DNA from: Candidatus Woesearchaeota archaeon
Lineage (GTDB): Archaea > Nanobdellota > Nanobdellia > Woesearchaeales > SKIA01
Assembly (NCBI GenBank): GCA_046704725.1
Contig: JBJKRI010000003.1
Coordinates: forward strand, 64,001-128,000
DNA length: 64,000 nucleotides
Direction: 5' to 3'
In this document: positions 16,558-43,137 of the stretch, piece by piece
Layout: every line of letters starts with the position of its first letter
Numbering within the stretch: the first letter of the stretch is position 1
Made by a program: the position numbers and the translations under genes
The notes under the pieces: model-generated
Database searches by the model: none
The model's input: only the letters and a program-made list of their open reading frames with translations
Told to the model about the DNA's origin: nothing

Positions 16558-17817
16558 GTGGATGTCATAAGGGATATTTGGGAGCTGTATGGAGTGCGCA
16601 GCGACCCTTTTTCAACATCCCCCATTTTGGTGAAGGGAGGAAATATTCCTCCAGATTGTTTTGTAGGTCGTGAGGATGCTATCCGAAGGCTTGGTAAAAT
16701 CATTGGATCCTCGGGGGGATCGAGAACATTGGTATTTGGGGAGACTGGCGTCGGGAAGACCACTTTTGTCAATATTGTCAGGCGGCAGGCAGTGCTAAAC
16801 GGGTATTTTAGTCCATTTAAAGAAATCGCAGTTCAAAGTGACTGGTCTCCTGCTGATTTCATTATGAACACTCTTGCAGCAATCTCTGCAAGCATGCGGG
16901 TGATGGAGCAAAGGCCCATCAGCGACAATACTTGGAACAAACTGGAATCATTGGTTGAACTGAGTTTTTCTGACGGGTCGTTCGGTATTGATGTTGCAGG
17001 TTTTGGAGGGAGTTTTTCGAGGGATAGAAAATCTGGTCGAGCGACGAATCAGCAACTCATGAATTTTCTCAGCGATTTGGTACAGGAAATTCGACAAGAA
17101 ACAGGGCATGACGTTATTGTTCACTATAACAATCTTGAACTATTGGATGAGCGCGATATCAGACGGCTGTTCGAGAATTTGCGAGACTTCTTCCAAACTC
17201 CTAATGTGCACTTCGTTTTTGTAGGAAACCTGTCTGTGAAAGGATACATGCAGAGTATTACTCGTTTTGCGTCAACGATGACAGATACACCCATTCATAT
17301 TGAGACTCTGAATCTTGATGAAATGAAGGAGATTTTAACACGAAGGTTCAATACTCTTCAAATTCCAGGATTGCGGCACGTGCTTCCATATACTCCTGAT
17401 TGTCTTGAAGCACTATTCGATCTCTGGGGTGGTAATGTTCGAAACATCCTGAATAGTCTCTCCACAGCAGTACAAGAACTTACAGAAGAAAAGCCTGTGT
17501 TGATTGATCGAAACTCCTTGGCTGTCACGCTGAACAGCGTTCTTGAAAAACGGTATTTCTCGAAACTTACCCCTCGCCAGAGGGATGTATTGTTGGAGGT
17601 TGTCAAGCGAGAGGAAATCACCAATAAAGGATTATCTGAAATTCTCAAAATGCCTGCATCCCAAGTTTCGACTAACACCAAGGACCTTCTTGAAAAAGGT
17701 TGTATTTATGTAAGGAGGAAGTCCGGCAGAAATAAATTTTGGACGGCCGATTCAATATTAAAGTGGCATCTTCTGAAAGAATCCGATTCATCTCAGAAGA
17801 CGCTAACGCATTACTGA
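16558..17817 (+). CDS. AAA+/P-loop ATPase with C-terminal winged helix, AT-rich
   Basis: FVGRE, Walker A GETGVGKTT, GGNVRNIL, C-terminal LTPRQRDVL...LSEILKMPASQVSTNTKDLLEKG HTH; codon usage clearly AT-richer than neighbours. Confidence 0.85.
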   Translation: MDVIRDIWELYGVRSDPFSTSPILVKGGNIPPDCFVGREDAIRRLGKIIGSSGGSRTLVFGETGVGKTTFVNIVRRQAVLNGYFSPFKEIAVQSDWSPADFIMNTLAAISASMRVMEQRPISDNTWNKLESLVELSFSDGSFGIDVAGFGGSFSRDRKSGRATNQQLMNFLSDLVQEIRQETGHDVIVHYNNLELLDERDIRRLFENLRDFFQTPNVHFVFVGNLSVKGYMQSITRFASTMTDTPIHIETLNLDEMKEILTRRFNTLQIPGLRHVLPYTPDCLEALFDLWGGNVRNILNSLSTAVQELTEEKPVLIDRNSLAVTLNSVLEKRYFSKLTPRQRDVLLEVVKREEITNKGLSEILKMPASQVSTNTKDLLEKGCIYVRRKSGRNKFWTADSILKWHLLKESDSSQKTLTHY

Positions 17818-28319: not shown

Positions 28320-29231
28320 ATGCAGCTGTGCTTTCTCGGAACCGGAGCGATGGTCCCCACGAAGGAGAGGAACGTCTCTTCCGTGCTCCTCGAGTACGAG
28401 GGGGAGTTCATCCTCTTCGACTGCGGCGAAGGCACGCAGCGCCAGATGAACCTGGCCGGCTACAATCGCACCAAGGTCAAGAAGGTCCTCCTCACGCACT
28501 GGCACGGCGACCACGTCTCCGGCCTGATCGGATTGATCCAGACCATCGGCAACGTGCCCGAGCCCGGCACGCTCGTCGTCGTCGGCCCCAAGGAGACCCG
28601 CCAGCGCCTCGACGCGCTCACCCACAGCGCGATCTTCGACGCCCGTCTCCATCTCGACGTGCACGAGATCGCTCCGGGAAAGCCTGAGAAGGTCCTCGAC
28701 ACCGAGCGCTACGAGATCTGGGCCGCGCCCGTCGAGCACACAGTCCCCACGCTGGCATACGCTTTTGTCGAAAAGGACGTGCGCCGCATCGACACGGAGA
28801 AGGCCGCTCGCCTCGGCCTCAAGCCAGGACCCTTCATGGGCAAGCTCTCGCGCGGCAAGCCCGTCGAGCTCGACGGCAAGACCATCACGCCCGAGATGGT
28901 CACCTACGTCCAGAAGGGGCGAAAGATCGCGTACGTCATGGACACGGGCGTGAACGAGAACGCCATCCGCCTCGCCGAGGACGCCGACGTCCTCATCTGC
29001 GAAAGCACGTTCAGCGCAGACCAGCACCAGGAAAAAGCGGAGGAGTACGGTCATCTCTCGGCGCGCGACGCCGCCCACATCGCCCGAGCCGCCAATGTCA
29101 AGAAGCTCGTCATCACTCACTTCTCCCAGCGCTACGTGACGAGCACTCCGTTGCTTGAAGAAGCGCAGGACACCTTTCCCAATACGGTCGCCGCCTACGA
29201 CTTCTTGCAGATGGACGTTCAGCGTGCTTGA
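28320..29231 (+). CDS. rnz: Ribonuclease Z
   Basis: FLGTG..PTKERN, DCGEGTQRQ, THWHGDH, exosite GLKPGP, ESTF, HLSA, THFSQRY. Confidence 0.95.
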   Translation: MQLCFLGTGAMVPTKERNVSSVLLEYEGEFILFDCGEGTQRQMNLAGYNRTKVKKVLLTHWHGDHVSGLIGLIQTIGNVPEPGTLVVVGPKETRQRLDALTHSAIFDARLHLDVHEIAPGKPEKVLDTERYEIWAAPVEHTVPTLAYAFVEKDVRRIDTEKAARLGLKPGPFMGKLSRGKPVELDGKTITPEMVTYVQKGRKIAYVMDTGVNENAIRLAEDADVLICESTFSADQHQEKAEEYGHLSARDAAHIARAANVKKLVITHFSQRYVTSTPLLEEAQDTFPNTVAAYDFLQMDVQRA

Positions 29232-29623
29232 TTATGGTCGATAGCGCGGAGAACCACTTCGAGCATTCCTTGCTCATTCTCGTCTGTGGCCTATTCTCGC
29301 CACTCTGCGAGGAATTCACGGGTGGGCCGCAACGCAGAGATGTCGCGATCGAATGTGATCTCTGTTCCGCCGCGGCCTTCGGTCGCGAGGTGATAACGCA
29401 CTACTCCATCCCGTGTCACACTGATATCGTGTAATTCCTGACTGCCATCAGGAGAATTGTCGCGTATAGCTGATTTCTACGGGAATGGCTGGTGGTAGAC
29501 CCCGAGTTTGCCACGTGGTCGCGCGGTATTGATAAGAAACTGGTGTTGCTCATCTTCTGTGGACCGTATCACGCTGTAGATATCGGCCGCCCCTGAGAAT
29601 ATCCCTTGATTGCTTGCGGCCAC
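29219..29623 (-). pseudogene. Possible disrupted ORF (135 codons with two in-frame TAG)
   Basis: Single frame from GTG 29623 to TGA 29219 interrupted only by TAG at 29479-29477 and 29293-29291; fills an otherwise empty gap. Confidence 0.3.
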
Positions 29624-29661: not shown

Positions 29662-29877
29662 TCAGGCGTTCTGCCGGACGGCGAGCTTGACGTCCTCGTC
29701 CTTGATGGTCTTTCTGCCGGCGTGCTCGGCGAATTTTATCGCTCGTTCACCGTAGCGGTTCGCGAGATCGGTGCAGATGTTCCGGAGTTCCTCTTTCGCG
29801 TCCTCGGAGACGCGCTCTGCCCCTGCACGCGTGATGATACGCTCCATCGCTGCCAGGGGGATGCTGCGTGTTGCCAT
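29662..29877 (-). CDS. Archaeal histone (HMf-like)
   Basis: IPLAAMERII..AGAERVSEDA...AEHAGRKTIKDEDVKLA histone fold; GGGAG SD-like site. Confidence 0.93.
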   Translation of the reverse strand: MATRSIPLAAMERIITRAGAERVSEDAKEELRNICTDLANRYGERAIKFAEHAGRKTIKDEDVKLAVRQNA

Positions 29878-37120: not shown

Positions 37121-38065
37121 CTAATCATCAATGTCGTCGAGTTCCTTCTCGACCTTTTCACGCGTGCGTTTGGCCTTCTTCATCGCGTCGTCGAGCGTGT
37201 CATCGTCTGAGATATCGTCGGGATTCGGTCCGTCGGGCCGTTCCTCAGGCTCGTCCTCGCCCGTTCGATCCTCTGGCGGTTCTTCATCCTCGGCCGGGGA
37301 TTCCTCGGCCTTGGGACGCATATCCTCCATCTCCTTGGCGATGCGCTCGCGCGTCTTCTGGGATTTCTCGAGCACCTTCTCAAGGTCCTCGACGGCGACC
37401 TTCTTTCGCAGCTTGGCTCCCTTCTTAGACAGCTCCCTTCCGGTCGCCTCTGTCTCGCTGGTCTCCGGCTCGTCCACGTCGACAGCCCCTTCCTCCTCCT
37501 GCGGGTCGGCGAGCTTCTTCTCCAGGCGTTTCTGGGACAGCTCGATCTCCATCTCTTTTTGCCGGTGCGCTTCTTCCACCTCGCGGAAGACCTTGCGGAT
37601 GTCCTCGCGGCCCTCGATGTCGAAGTACTCGAAGAACTTGTCCGTGATGCGCAACTGGTACGAGCGTCCCTGCGGCTCTTTTGCGACAAAACCACGTTCC
37701 ACCAGCTCTTTGACATGCTCGTACGCCCCGCTGCCGCGGATAGCGATCAGGTCCGATTGCAGCATGGGCGAGCGCCAGGCGATGACCGCGAGCGTCTCTA
37801 GGACGGGTCCGGACACTTCAGTGTCCGACACGATCTTCGAGACTAGATCCAGATACTCATCCTTGACGTGCAGCTTCCAGGCACCCTCGTCCTCGACCAC
37901 GCGTAGCGCCGAATCCTCGGTGGCGTAGCGCTTCTGCAGCGCCTCGAGCGCCGCGCGCACCTTCTTGCCGTCCTTCTCGAGGAGCTGTGCGATGTGTGTG
38001 GTGTCCATGAAGCGCCCGGAGGCGAACAGGACGGCCTCTACTTCTTTTTCGAGCCGAGCGTCCAT
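37121..38065 (-). CDS. scpB: SMC-Scp complex subunit ScpB with long charged C-terminal extension
   Basis: VEAVLFAS, LETLAVIAWRSP..QS.LIAIRG..AYEHVKELVERGFV, TDKFFEYF. Confidence 0.92.
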   Translation of the reverse strand: MDARLEKEVEAVLFASGRFMDTTHIAQLLEKDGKKVRAALEALQKRYATEDSALRVVEDEGAWKLHVKDEYLDLVSKIVSDTEVSGPVLETLAVIAWRSPMLQSDLIAIRGSGAYEHVKELVERGFVAKEPQGRSYQLRITDKFFEYFDIEGREDIRKVFREVEEAHRQKEMEIELSQKRLEKKLADPQEEEGAVDVDEPETSETEATGRELSKKGAKLRKKVAVEDLEKVLEKSQKTRERIAKEMEDMRPKAEESPAEDEEPPEDRTGEDEPEERPDGPNPDDISDDDTLDDAMKKAKRTREKVEKELDDIDD

Positions 38066-38655
38066 TTTTTCCCCTTCTTCGCGATGATCTTCTCCTCTGA
38101 CATGGGCGCTAGCACGCGTTCCATATCCTCGGCGGAGGTGCCTGCGAGCCGTGCGAGCTCTTCGGCATCCTTCGGTCCGGAGGCGAGCAGGATCGTGACC
38201 ATGTTACGCAGGAGGTTCATGATGCTCATCCCGAGATGGGAGATGCGCTGACGCTCCCCGCGGAGCGTCTGTTGCGTGTAGTGCAGCTGGCTGAGCAGGT
38301 CGTTGAACCAGTTCTGCAGGTCGAGATGCTTGATGACGAGCTCCGCGGGCTCGAGCATCTCGATGGACGCCGGCGTGTAGTTGAACGCGAGCGACGTGAG
38401 CGTCTCGGGCGTCTCCACAGTCATTTCCACCTCAGCGAAGGCGCTGAAGAATCCAGGGTCCTCCTCGAGCTCGTTGGCCTTCTCCGAATGGATGTCCACG
38501 ATGCCCAACGCCTTCTCGTCCACGATCTCCTTGAGAAATTTCTTGAGCGTCGTCTCGACGTGCTCCTTGGGCGTTCCGACGATCTCGAACGTGACGAGCA
38601 CGCGGAGGTGCCCTTCGCTGACGCGTTCCTTGGCGTCGTCCTCGCTGATGCGCAT
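38038..38655 (-). CDS. Conserved archaeal hypothetical protein with C-terminal winged helix
   Basis: FEIVGTPKEHVE, FSAFAEVE, YTPASIEMLEP; C-terminal GPKDAEELARLAG..wHTH; overlaps scpB start. Confidence 0.75.
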   Translation of the reverse strand: MRISEDDAKERVSEGHLRVLVTFEIVGTPKEHVETTLKKFLKEIVDEKALGIVDIHSEKANELEEDPGFFSAFAEVEMTVETPETLTSLAFNYTPASIEMLEPAELVIKHLDLQNWFNDLLSQLHYTQQTLRGERQRISHLGMSIMNLLRNMVTILLASGPKDAEELARLAGTSAEDMERVLAPMSEEKIIAKKGKKWTLGSKKK

Positions 38656-38756
38656 GAGCGTTGCACCGGGCTGCGCATTATAAAGATATTGCCCCGTGCG
38701 GGAGCACAACCTTTAAATACGCCATATTCGGTTCAGGACAAAGAGGTGAGCGATAC

Positions 38757-40367: not shown

Positions 40368-40470
40368 GTGGGGGTTCCCGAGTGGTCAAAGGGGCAGGAC
40401 TCAAGCGTCGATTGTGACGGGGATATCCTGTAGCTGAGCGCTTTCGGGGGTTCGAATCCCTCCCCCCACA
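40368..40470 (+). tRNA. tRNA-Leu(CAA) with 19-nt intron at 37/38 (40406-40424)
   Basis: Acceptor GTGGGGG/CCCCCAC+A, D arm CCCGAGTGGTCAAAGGG, anticodon arm CAGGA-CT-CAA-G|intron|A-TCCTG, long variable arm, GGGGG-TTCGAAT-CCCTC; CCA not encoded. Confidence 0.93.
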
Positions 40471-40650
40471 TTTTTATGGATTCACGTGTTTCAGGTGTTC
40501 TCCGCCTTGAATTCGATAGATAAGTTTGCGATTTTCAGTGAAATTCTTGGATTGGTCTGATTTTCCGAATGTCGAGAATTCGTTATTCTCAGGATGCGTG
40601 CTTGAAGAATCGCATTTTTCGGATATATCTTGATTTTCGAATTATTGTGT

Positions 40651-41381
40651 TACAGGCTTTCAGATACGTGAATTCACTATTTCAGCCACTCAAGGGTTCT
40701 GAGCCCTTTGAGGACCTTTAAAATTATTAATTATTGCTTCTCAAAGCCTGAGGAACATGAATTCACTCCTTTCAGCTTTCTCAATTCTGTGTGAATTCAC
40801 TCATTTTTCGGACTGATCGTGCTGCTCCTCACGTGCCTGCAGCGGATCTTGCCTCTTCTGCTCGATATTCAGGTTACTGTTGGCGTTTCTGTTGTATTTT
40901 CTATATAGATATAAATATCATCTACTGAAATTGGATTCTAGAGCTACAGGCTTTGGGGGACGTGAATTGACGTGTTTACTGATTTTTTGAAATTTTCCGA
41001 TTTTCTGTGATTTTCGAATTTAATTATAGCTTCTCAAAGGCTGAGGTGTACGAATTCTCGAGTTCCAATGTCTTTGAAACTGGCTGTTTTGGCTTCAGAT
41101 CCCGTTCGTTTTGTGGAGTTGGATCCTTCATTTGTGCTATTTTTGGCCTCCGTCGCACGCTCTATCTGTCGATTGTATCTTTTTTGATATTTTCTATAAT
41201 GAAAATAATTGATTTTCCGCTTATTTTCGATCGATTTCTGTGTTTTTGATTCGTGCGATATAGGCTTTGGGGGAAATGAATTCTCGAGTTTCGCTATTTT
41301 ATGGTCTTAAGCTGGATATCTTGGTTTTCTGGCCACGATTCTCGCTTCCCAAAGCCCGAGGGGGATGAATTCTCGAGAATC
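40651..41381. repeat. Three ~300-bp-periodic composite units (inverted-repeat pair plus GAATTC boxes) in an AT-rich intergenic region
   Basis: A elements TAYAGGCTTT.. at 40651, 40945, 41259; B elements GCTTCYCAAAGSCYGAGG at 40736, 41029, 41344; each followed by a (T/C)GAATT(C/G)WC box. Confidence 0.85.
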
Positions 41382-41535
41382 AATGATTGAAAACTGGCTT
41401 TGTATTACCAAGTATGGAAATATCACACAAAAACCGGAAGATTTCCGGAATGCTTTATAATAGATGGTTCCGGCGATGCTGCGATCCGACCCGAAAAATA
41501 TAGAGTTAAATATTACTTAGTACGACCAGATTGGT

Positions 41536-41799
41536 ATGAGAACTGTTTCTCTCAAGATGGCGGACAGTATCCTAGATAGGATCGATGCCCACCTTGAGCG
41601 ACACAACTTCACGACACGCACGGAATTCATACGGGAAGCCATCCGGGACAAGCTCCAAGAGCTCGAAAGTGATAGGTTCGAATCAGAAATCCGTAAATAC
41701 TTCCGGCACCATTCTACCGAATTAGGCAAAGAAATCAACGATATCGAAAGCGACGTGTTCCGAGAGCTGGAGAACCGCTTCGGAAGACAGCGACGATAG
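41536..41799 (+). CDS. Ribbon-helix-helix (CopG/NikR-like) DNA-binding protein
   Basis: MRTVSLKMADSILDRIDAHLERHNFTTRTEFIREAIRDKL. Confidence 0.85.
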   Translation: MRTVSLKMADSILDRIDAHLERHNFTTRTEFIREAIRDKLQELESDRFESEIRKYFRHHSTELGKEINDIESDVFRELENRFGRQRR

Positions 41800-41808
41800 G
41801 AGAATACC

Positions 41809-43137
41809 ATGACTCTTGAATTGACCGCCATAGGCGGATATAACGAAGTAGGAAGGCAGTCCACAGCCGTCAAAGTGGACAATGACGTCATCATCATCGA
41901 TCTGGGATTGCACCTGGACCAGTACATCAAGTACACAGAGGACGAGGAGGAAGACATCAACACGACCAGTTCGCGCGGCCTGCGAAAAGCGGGAGCGATC
42001 CCTGATTGGACGAGCATCCGCGACTGGAAAAAGGACGTGCGGGCGATCATCCTGACGCACGCGCACCTCGACCACGTCGGCGCCGTGCCGTATCTCGCGC
42101 GCATCTTCGGGTGCCCTATCTACGGTTCGCCGTTCACCATCGCGTTGCTTAAGCAGCTCATCGCGGACAAGGATATCGACGTCCCGAACACATTGATCCC
42201 TGTGGACAAGAAGGTGAAGATCACTGACAAGGTGACCGCCGAGTTCATCCACATGACGCACAGCACTGCGGACAGCCGTTTCGTCGCGCTCCATACGCCG
42301 TACGGCGTCGTCTCGATCGACAACGACTACAAGCTCGACCCGCATCCCACGCTCGGCCACCCGCCCGACTACGCGCGCCTCGGAAAGCTCAAGGGCAATA
42401 TCATCGCCCATGTCGGCGAGTGCCTGTATGTGCAGAACGCGACCAAGACCCCTTCGGAGGTCGTCGCCCGCCAGATGCTCGAGGACGTCTTGCTCACGCA
42501 GGACTTCAAGAACCGCACGGTCTTCGTTAGCACTTTCTCCAGCCACATCGCGCGTCTGCACACCCTCATGGAGATCGGCAAGGCCATGGGGCGCGAGGTG
42601 GTCTTCCTGGGACGCAGCATGAGCAAGTACCTCGCGGCGGCAGAAGAGGCGAAGATCCTCAAGACGCCCAAGCACGTCACGTTGCTCAAGTACGGCAGCC
42701 AGATACGGCGCTTCTTCAAGCAGCACCGCGACCTGTCATCGTACCTCGTCGTCTGCACCGGGCACATGGGCGAGAAGAAAGCGGCCCTCACCAAGCTCGT
42801 CGAGGGCAAGTATCCCTTCCGGTTCAAGCCCGACGATGTCGTGGTCTTCAGCAGCCGCACCATACCCGTGCCGGGAATCATCGCTGACCGTGCCGACCTC
42901 CAGCGCAAGCTGCGCGGAGCGCAGGTGCGCATCTTCGACGAGGTCCACGTCTCGGGCCACGCCTCGCGCGAGGATATCCGTCGCCTCATCCAGCTCATCC
43001 GGCCCGAGCACCTCGTGCCGAACCATGGTGTCCCTGCCATGACGGAGAGCTACATCGCGCTCGCGCGCGAGCTCGGCTACGACCCCGACAAGATCCACAA
43101 CCTGCGTGAGGGCGACCGCATCGTGCTCGCCAAGTAG
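41809..43137 (+). CDS. rnj: Ribonuclease J (beta-CASP)
   Basis: GGYNEVGR, THAHLDHVG, THSTAD, DYKLD, HVSGHA, PNHG. Confidence 0.93.
   Translation: MTLELTAIGGYNEVGRQSTAVKVDNDVIIIDLGLHLDQYIKYTEDEEEDINTTSSRGLRKAGAIPDWTSIRDWKKDVRAIILTHAHLDHVGAVPYLARIFGCPIYGSPFTIALLKQLIADKDIDVPNTLIPVDKKVKITDKVTAEFIHMTHSTADSRFVALHTPYGVVSIDNDYKLDPHPTLGHPPDYARLGKLKGNIIAHVGECLYVQNATKTPSEVVARQMLEDVLLTQDFKNRTVFVSTFSSHIARLHTLMEIGKAMGREVVFLGRSMSKYLAAAEEAKILKTPKHVTLLKYGSQIRRFFKQHRDLSSYLVVCTGHMGEKKAALTKLVEGKYPFRFKPDDVVVFSSRTIPVPGIIADRADLQRKLRGAQVRIFDEVHVSGHASREDIRRLIQLIRPEHLVPNHGVPAMTESYIALARELGYDPDKIHNLREGDRIVLAK

Follow-up and report, generated by a model that had tools for sequence, protein, structure and literature searches.

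The window analysed here is a stretch of 64,000 nucleotides from the genome of a Candidatus Woesearchaeota archaeon (G000:C3:64001-128000, G000 being the genome of this DNA and C3 the contig), and the element in question is an array of repeats that lies in it between the genes for tRNA-Leu(CAA) and RNase J. The genome comprises 1.18 Mb in 8 contigs with 60% GC, and its nearest named relatives by RNase J similarity are soda-lake 'Candidatus Woesearchaeota' metagenome-assembled genomes (MAGs). As listed in Table 1, the array is bordered on the left by the tRNA gene, which a default run of ARAGORN missed, and on the right by a small ribbon-helix-helix (RHH) gene that precedes RNase J. Genes in G000 were called crudely, by a criterion of GC at third codon positions (GC3). 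The spacer between the two borders holds no credible gene, its longest open reading frames (ORFs) measuring 45-80 aa, and its GC is 0.41 against ~0.60 for the genome. It is the sixth-ranked gap between called genes, and at least two of the larger low-GC gaps are low-GC coding genes. The median intergenic gap in G000 is 63 bp; the array gap is nonetheless kept in six genomes.

Table 1. Features of the array locus and of the orc1/cdc6-adjacent origin; positions refer to the window unless a contig is named.
Feature	Position	Strand	Evidence
tRNA-Leu(CAA) with 19-nt intron, left border of array	40368..40470	+	Rfam RF00005, 42.7 bits; ARAGORN with intron option
Whole AT-rich, T-rich gene-free spacer	40471..41535	.	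GC 0.41, AT skew -0.25
Degenerate copies beside tRNA: box 40477, element-like stretch 40492	40477..40525	+	Box scan; position weight matrix (PWM) from relatives only, 8.2
Sole reversed box copy	40572..40592	-	Inverted repeats I1 and I3; PWM match on - strand
Element A1 with TGAATTC box	40644..40686	+	nhmmer E 3e-3; pattern match
Element B1 with box	40733..40779	+	nhmmer E 2e-5; box and B-pattern scans
Extra solitary box copy	40792..40807	+	Box scan, 2 mismatches; repeat family D5
Palindromic TATA-like motif TTCTATATAGA in long spacer	40899..40916	.	Overlaps promoter-PWM match at 40907
Element A2 with box	40938..40985	+	nhmmer; box and A-pattern scans
Element B2 with box	41026..41070	+	nhmmer; box and B-pattern scans
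Strongest 10.5-bp phasing of T-tracts	41032..41381	+	Local power 10-16
Second TATA-like copy TTCTATAATGAAAATAAT	41192..41209	.	Repeat family D9
Element A3 with box	41254..41299	+	nhmmer; box and A-pattern scans
Element B3 with box and near-complete dyad AATTCTCGAGAATC (6/7 symmetric pairs)	41340..41387	+	nhmmer; box, B-pattern and dyad scans
RHH (CopG family) gene, right border	41536..41799	+	Pfam PF01402, E 1.9e-5; promoter match at 41502
RNase J gene, synteny anchor, starts 10 nt after RHH	41809..43137	+	
Canonical-looking oriC upstream of single orc1/cdc6	G000:C3:29166-29417 (L019:200-600)		Inverted origin recognition boxes with G-runs

The initial annotation of the window had described an element A at 40651, 40945 and 41259 and an element B at 40736, 41029 and 41344, with an A-to-B distance of 85/84/85 bp and a period of 293-315 bp, and all of these copies and distances were recovered when the sequence was read again. 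Patterns written post hoc for A and for B each match at their three positions, and in neither case did any of 100 shuffles do as well (at least three matches for A). The box TGAATTCNCNNGTTTC, searched with up to 2 mismatches, has 8 matches in the window where 1.2 are expected, a number reached in 0/100 shuffles; seven of the eight fall within 40477-41381, all on the + strand. The box was said to follow each of the six elements, and it does; the copy at 40669 needs 3 mismatches or a 1-nt shift and is missed by that scan. The extra copies reported at 40477 and 40792 are both in the scan, and the reversed one near 40572 corresponds to the inverted-repeat pairs I1 and I3. When a profile of the elements was run with nhmmer against the whole genome, the six matches (E 2e-5 to 3e-3) all lay in the array and the next best had an E value of 1.3. 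Genome-wide pattern scans likewise confined the elements to this locus, so that A, B and the boxes, for which the initial annotation had suggested a uniqueness scan, are absent elsewhere in the genome by both methods. A dispersed repeat of the miniature inverted-repeat transposable element (MITE) or repetitive extragenic palindromic (REP) kind was rejected because all significant copies are inside the array.

The window copies are 61-77% identical to one another and their spacing alternates between ~85 (84-89) and 205-226 bp, for which reasons an array of clustered regularly interspaced short palindromic repeats (CRISPR) was also rejected. The three ~300-bp units can be aligned end to end with a mean column identity of 64%, which indicates that the array is a diverged tandem triplication. 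The spacers had been called very T-rich and unrelated; they are T-rich, while their unrelatedness has to be corrected, since the whole unit and not just the elements was triplicated. A more fitting reading takes A and B for diverged copies, both in the same direction, of a single element, RGSCYTK..N..TGAATTC, and not for two interleaved binding motifs. The approximate reverse complementarity of B to A exists in the window as the 8-nt pair AGGCTTTG/CAAAGCCT and is not found in relatives, where both members of a pair share one direct 5' arm; it is a peculiarity of the window genome. Only B3 among the window copies carries a near-complete dyad.

Six array-bearing genomes were compared: G000, four of the same genus (G001-G004) and one of a sister genus (G006), all of the relatives being MAGs. 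The order tRNA-Leu(CAA), long AT-rich spacer, RNase J, with or without RHH before the last, is found in 4/4 of the other same-genus genomes and in G006. In each array-bearing genome the spacer is gene-free, ~1.1-1.5 kb long, AT-rich and T-rich, and those of the relatives hold 4-12 same-direction elements (12 in G003, 7 in G004, for example GGCTTTGTGCACGTCGAATTCACGTGAAT, 5-7 in G001 and 4-5 in G002) whose start-to-start spacing alternates between 74-89 and 168-226 bp. Every same-genus spacer has its own homogenised family of elements; the layout in G006, the sole sister-genus genome examined, is by eye similar but more diverged. When the genomes are aligned with one another only the elements and the RHH region align and the inter-element spacers cannot be aligned, a pattern expected of binding sites. 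The RNase J proteins of these genomes, which are ~90% coding, are down to 50% identical. The non-coding array is not dispersed, and its motif architecture and spacing are kept in relatives. The initial annotation had named missing conservation or a genome-wide dispersed family as signs of no function; we found conserved spacing and motifs at a single locus. A PWM made from G003 and G004 and applied within the window array places all six elements, in register, among its top nine matches, the sixth-best score being -0.4 against a shuffle mean of -11.1.

Outside this group the junction is different. At L009, L010 and L011, which belong to other families of the order, RNase J follows tRNA-Leu after 46-90 nt; at L012, from another family, a glycosyltransferase gene lies between the two; and in G005, from a third genus of the family of G000, the neighbourhood is different. 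The array-free junction in other families indicates that the array and the RHH gene are an insertion confined to part of one family. The exact G003/G004 element is multi-copy only at the same locus of those two MAGs (24 hit records). A metagenome scan with a single protein gave no relative, and one with an alignment gave no new family member, the best of the 80 loci kept from 317 candidates being 50% identical.

A feature can be added to the array as first annotated: its T-tracts are helically phased. On the strand that carries the flanking genes, each of the six arrays is rich in T, with AT skews from -0.14 to -0.29, compared with a median of +0.03 for 231 co-directional intergenic gaps in G000. 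The trinucleotide TTT has a spectral peak at 10.5 bp in the window array with a power of 15.2, which no shuffle of 200 reached; the maximum at this period in 725 windows of G000 is 10.8, and six other long low-GC gene-free gaps do not exceed 6.8. With all elements masked the power is still 13.3 (0/300 shuffles). Over ~0.8 kb, 18 of the 21 runs of four or more T start within 2 nt of one helical phase. Among the relatives the power is 18.2 in G003 and 15.3 in G001 (0/200 shuffles each), 11.1 in G002 (3/200) and 9.7 in G004 (5/200). At a period of 10.5 bp, the elements of G003 (p=0.001) and G004 (p=0.03) sort by position into two phase classes that differ by half a turn; in G001 the element phasing is not significant. 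A 14-bp core dyad with at least 5/7 symmetric pairs is present in 4/7 elements of G004 and in 7/12 of G003, there mostly in the second member of each pair, and its inner hexamer, CACGTG in the relatives, is CTCGAG in 3/6 window copies, a change that keeps the symmetry. Phased T-tracts bend DNA, and the DNA of the window spacer is probably curved, as predicted from the periodicity alone.

Taken together, the unique sites, the architecture conserved over randomised spacers, the dyads, the single orientation, the strand asymmetry and the phasing fit a cis element that would act through protein binding and DNA shape. We give about even chances to the reading of the locus as a lineage-specific, cis-acting protein-binding array on curved DNA, and from these features we infer protein binding, bending and a biological role. 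The initial annotation had offered a protein-binding array among its candidates, and unique sites and conserved architecture make this the best reading, the binding itself being predicted. The array comprises six good and about three degenerate copies of a ~35-45 bp element, set in one direction; in each, an asymmetric 5' arm (RGSCYTK...) is followed by a core centred on GAATTC, and in the relatives this core is the dyad AATTCACGTGAATT. A sequence-specific and probably dimeric DNA-binding protein would occupy the elements, and bending by the phased T-tracts might let ~1 kb of DNA wrap or loop into one higher-order nucleoprotein complex. The array would have entered the tRNA-Leu/RNase J junction in an ancestor of the family. 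What such a complex might do is proposed with low confidence: its role could lie in chromosome architecture or maintenance near the origin, as an organising, loading or accessory-origin site, and not in ordinary gene regulation. That the array is a chromosome-architecture or maintenance site is a tentative and somewhat doubtful proposal.

Several results weigh against the protein-binding array. The profile made from G003 and G004 did not retrieve the window elements in a whole-genome search, which means that homology of the elements across species is carried by position, orientation, spacing and short motifs (AGGCTTTG, GAATTC). In G003 a 102-nt stretch is duplicated with 99% identity at an offset of 272 bp (contig C82, L015, 1433-1534 and 1705-1806), so this array has apparently grown recently by one whole unit, and part of the similarity within genomes would reflect turnover and not selection. 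G006 has no TTT peak (power 6.4, 37/200 shuffles). A Rayleigh test on runs of four or more T, a cruder second test of periodicity, is weak both in the window (18/300 shuffles) and in the relatives (22-154/300). The window elements, with phases 0, 5, 0, 4, 9.5 and 4, do not separate significantly into two classes (p=0.16), and only 1/6 of them qualifies for the dyad. A search with the window's RHH protein gave no match in G002 (97% complete) or G003 (91% complete), the genomes with the largest arrays, and the RHH is common without arrays, matching 100 of 301 sampled genomes of the order (a count that includes G000 and G248, and no conclusion depends on G248). The only AAA_31 match in G000, taken as the test for a ParA-type ATPase with PF01656 alone not searched genome-wide, is an Mrp/NBP35 Fe-S protein (PF10609), which weakens a ParA-type partition role; no partition ATPase gene is among the ORFs flanking the array.

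The RHH protein adjoins the array in 4/6 array-bearing genomes and is also found in G005, which has no array. Of 16 RHH loci read from other families, one of them L044 from G248, at least nine show the RHH gene followed by a convergent ORF of 138-151 aa. At none of the 14 loci with ~1.4 kb of upstream sequence was there an ORF-free stretch longer than ~400 nt in that sequence, in a rough reading of stop-to-stop ORFs of at least 70 aa. Weak NCBIfam matches of the RHH protein, all under the curated cut-offs, are to NikR N-terminal domains, CdrS and aCcr1 and point to a small RHH regulator such as those that the available parts of PMC9976878 and PMC9976892 describe. As a general binder of the array the RHH was rejected on its absence from the searches of G002 and G003 and its frequency in the order without arrays, and it is unlikely to be the binder.

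The initial annotation had preferred a non-canonical oriC, while pointing out that no cdc6 is adjacent and that the boxes are unlike the canonical origin recognition box (ORB). Both observations stand. The sole match to Cdc6_C (PF09079) in G000 is at C3:30468-30725, ~75 kb from the array, in a gene (C3:29418-30776) outside the window, and the neighbours of the array are tRNA-Leu, RHH and RNase J. The ~400-bp spacer upstream of this orc1/cdc6 gene contains TCCACACGAAATCAAGGGG at 29206 (-) and TCCATAGGAAATGAAGGGG at 29439 (+), flanking an AT-rich stretch whose core contains TTCTATATAGAAA. Both inverted boxes, with their G-runs, are conserved there in G004 and G001, and G006 has TTCCAGTGGAAAT at this place. 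Within G000, a pattern built on the ORBs beside orc1 occurs at C3:12081, 29206 and 29439 only and has no match in the window; the canonical ORB consensus used for comparison was the one quoted in the initial annotation. According to the accessible portion of PMC3528665, from which the general criteria were taken, archaeal origins are recognised by inverted ORBs, a G-string, an AT-rich element and adjacency to orc1/cdc6. The orc1-adjacent spacer has all four, and we conclude that a canonical oriC lies there. The array shares with this list only its AT-richness, and all of its strong elements are in direct orientation. It is therefore not the chromosome's Orc1-type main origin.

The nucleotide skew, the other sign by which an origin elsewhere was to be recognised, points the other way in G000, with a changepoint at the array and none at orc1. 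The residual GC3 skew on the + strand, after removal of the coding-strand bias (GC3 skew -0.122), is -0.05 to -0.11 over 0-100 kb of C3 and ~0 over 110-196 kb. It shifts from -0.074 to +0.011 at a least-squares changepoint at 103,164 (runners-up 97.9 and 102.4 kb), ~1.2 kb from the start of the array at 104,348, a step matched in 0/300 permutations of gene order; there is no step at the orc1-adjacent origin (29 kb). This coincidence, the AT-rich DNA with several same-direction repeats on phased T-tracts, and a position on the 3' side of a tRNA gene with absence from other families, as expected for integration, would suit a secondary origin that was acquired from a mobile element and works without ORB-bound Orc1, in which the repeats would be iterons and the bent AT-rich DNA the unwinding zone. 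We nevertheless regard such an origin as very unlikely. A canonical oriC with conserved ORBs is present on the same contig, the window has no ORB match, no initiator gene (orc, rep or whiP-like) is adjacent, and genes do not diverge from the array. On the 130-kb contig C4 of G006, which carries both orc1 and the array and is from the sole relative testable for skew, the residual skew is unchanged across the array (-0.062 to its left, -0.076 to its right) and the changepoints are at 58 or 90 kb instead. Three more skew steps of G000 (C8 ~51-59 kb, C7 ~71 kb, C2 ~50 kb) lie at places with no notable non-coding feature, and archaeal skews are largely not replication-strand-specific, as far as the available text of PMC12999951 goes. 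The coincidence might instead reflect a past rearrangement with its boundary at the tRNA or the repeats. The steps in G000 outnumber those of one origin and one terminus. Quite unlikely, too, is a plasmid-type maintenance site domesticated at tRNA-Leu by a lineage of the Woesearchaeales, whose phased and curved repeats would serve as a second origin that does not need ORB-bound Orc1 or as a chromosomal centromere or organising centre, and where the replication-associated strand bias of G000 would switch.

A 12-bp palindrome, TTCTATATAGAA, occurs in both the orc1-adjacent origin and the array. It is also intergenic at C3:19978, C3:2833, C5:5778, C5:61496, C6:247121 and other places, and was rejected as a replication-specific motif on its occurrence upstream of ThiI, two SufBD, helix-turn-helix, PMT_2 glycosyltransferase and L37ae genes; it could serve as a variant promoter or as a binding site for a global regulator. 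Within the window, the product of a low-GC (~0.45) gene at 16558-17817 (+) is an AAA_16 P-loop protein of 419 aa that carries a MarR-type winged helix at its C-terminus and whose N-terminus bears a faint likeness to Orc1/Cdc6 (TIGR02928, 19 bits, cut-off 181). This gene, probably acquired horizontally, was rejected as the initiator of the array on being found in 0/5 array-bearing relatives.

The remaining readings concern transcription, RNA and descent from a mobile element. An extended upstream control region for the RHH/RNase J operon, made of tandem promoters, activator sites or an insulator, would account for the constant position directly upstream of RNase J, toward which every strong element points, and for G002 and G003, where RNase J follows the array without an intervening RHH. 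Promoters can be activated by curved DNA upstream of them. Promoters were scored with a matrix for the TATA box and the transcription factor B recognition element, trained on 512 upstream regions of G000 in which the box lies ~34 nt before the start codons, and five places in the spacer reach at least the upper quartile of real promoters: 40468 (+)/40470 (-) in the tRNA trailer, 40714/40716 upstream of B1, 40905-40907 upstream of A2 and 41502, the RHH promoter, and TATA-like palindromes recur in the long spacers. Good TATA boxes stand upstream of only 2/6 elements, with predicted starts at differing positions relative to the element, and on this count tandem promoters were rejected. Depending on the genome, ~40 to 190 nt separate the last element from the next start codon downstream, RNase J of other families is served by a spacer of 46-90 nt, and 6-12 sites over 1 kb far exceed, to our knowledge, what known archaeal regulators use. 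A control region is thus an unlikely explanation. Small structured RNA genes in which A pairs with B, an alternative of the initial annotation, are extremely improbable and that proposal is abandoned: an A:B stem does close the minimum-energy fold in 3/3 window units, with G-U pairs only on the + strand, T runs follow many elements and two promoter-like matches lie upstream, but the fold z-scores of the units (-2.25, -1.33 and -0.70) are unexceptional, long-range 5'-3' pairing recurs in only 2/9 element pairs of G003 and G004 (z -2.2 to +3.0), no Rfam family matches at E up to 5, the inter-element sequence is unconserved, and a + strand rich in G+T with a - strand rich in A+C is poor for folding. 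The array is not a described RNA, nor is it a dispersed repeat. The inversion sites that had also been suggested found no support.

That the array is a non-functional relic of tandem repeats from an element integrated at tRNA-Leu, maintained by duplication and unequal crossing-over, appears very improbable. Such a relic would be lineage-specific, low in GC and located at a tRNA 3' end, as the insertion is; copy number varies from 3 to 6 units, one unit of G003 has a 99%-identical duplicate, and the elements look homogenised within each genome. Yet the array is kept in all six array-bearing genomes across two genera despite the divergence of their RNase J, in genomes with little non-coding DNA, and it has preserved its architecture, orientation, T-skew and periodicity over randomised spacers. 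There is neither an integrase nor any other mobile gene. A blastn search of the window spacer against plasmids and phages gave no match, and a pattern scan of viral contigs with the exact G003/G004 element gave 0 matches. Attachment-site (att) repeats derived from the tRNA were rejected as well: by eye the ungapped identity is 56-68%, and the elements resemble the tRNA 3' half no better than shuffled sequence does: aligned locally with its own array, the tRNA-Leu 3' half of each genome scores 8.5-9, where the mean top scores of shuffled arrays are 7.7-9.3. The array is not demonstrably an att relic. An iteron-type plasmid origin would have a rep gene beside it and iterons set about two helical turns apart; the array has no rep-like ORF in its flanks, and its element spacing is 84-89 and 205-226 bp.

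Some observations on the surroundings and on the genome are recorded here. G000 has two intron-containing tRNA-Leu(CAA) genes, the one beside the array and one at C5:231656-231751, and introns were called in 15/49 of its tRNAs, some of them implausibly long. Two archaeal histone genes (PF00808) are present, at 29677-29865 (-) of the window, 10.6 kb upstream of the array, and at C4:78981-79163. At 37121-38709 (-) lies scpB, so named by the initial annotation. The ORF that precedes it in the operon, 223 aa long, has no more than a weak winged-helix match at its C-terminus and might encode a divergent ScpA kleisin; this operon stops 1.7 kb short of the array, on its upstream side. Other long low-GC gaps of G000 were rejected as sister arrays: they hold no repeat families, Rfam finds only two tRNAs in them, and both C7:369-1790 and window 16558-17817 are low-GC coding genes. 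A further 2.9 kb without a GC3-called gene (G000:C6:104859-107750, GC 0.44, no Rfam match, no repeats) could represent a low-GC gene or some other feature.

The genomes of DPANN archaea are tiny and densely packed, the organisms cannot be cultivated on their own, and their replication, chromosome organisation and segregation are almost undescribed. A non-coding array of a kilobase or more, found at one locus in six genomes, unique within each and set on helically phased T-tracts, is a concrete cis element in this group. Should it turn out to be an accessory origin or to resemble a centromere, no element of the kind would have been defined in the group before, and it would be a second example of the capture of an origin or maintenance site at a tRNA gene; if it only serves RNase J as an elaborate upstream region, it would, even so, be unusually large for a control region in archaea.

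Among known systems, the array resembles archaeal Orc1/Cdc6 origins in its AT-rich intergenic DNA, its repeated ~35-bp elements, the presence of orc1 on the same contig and a G-run in some window copies, and differs from them in its direct instead of inverted elements, the lack of a match to the ORB core and the lack of an adjacent orc1/cdc6. Iteron plasmid origins and sopC centromeres consist of contiguous direct repeats of 20-43 bp with rep or par genes adjacent. With them the array has in common same-direction repeats with an internal dyad, a single locus and a variable copy number, and it differs in its long spacing, alternating between ~80 and ~200 bp, in having no adjacent rep or par genes and in matching no plasmid or phage by blastn. 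Like phased A/T-tract curved DNA, it carries T-tracts every 10.5 bp on one strand over several hundred bp, curvature here being predicted from the periodicity; a literature search found no archaeal counterpart of a T-tract coherence over ~0.8 kb tied to a repeat array. The RHH centromeres (SegB S1/S2, ParR-parC, omega, ParG) likewise have multiple sites with palindromic character, and an RHH gene is next door in 4/6 array genomes, whereas the array locus has no ParA/SegA ATPase gene and two array genomes gave no RHH. Higher-order DNA wrapping by RHH centromere proteins is described in the available part of PMC8682754. SegB sites, in the accessible text of bioRxiv 10.1101/2025.02.07.637068, are 13-bp palindromes (TCTAGA-S-TCTAGA) at ~46-49 mostly intragenic places; they are thus scattered, whereas the array forms one unique cluster.

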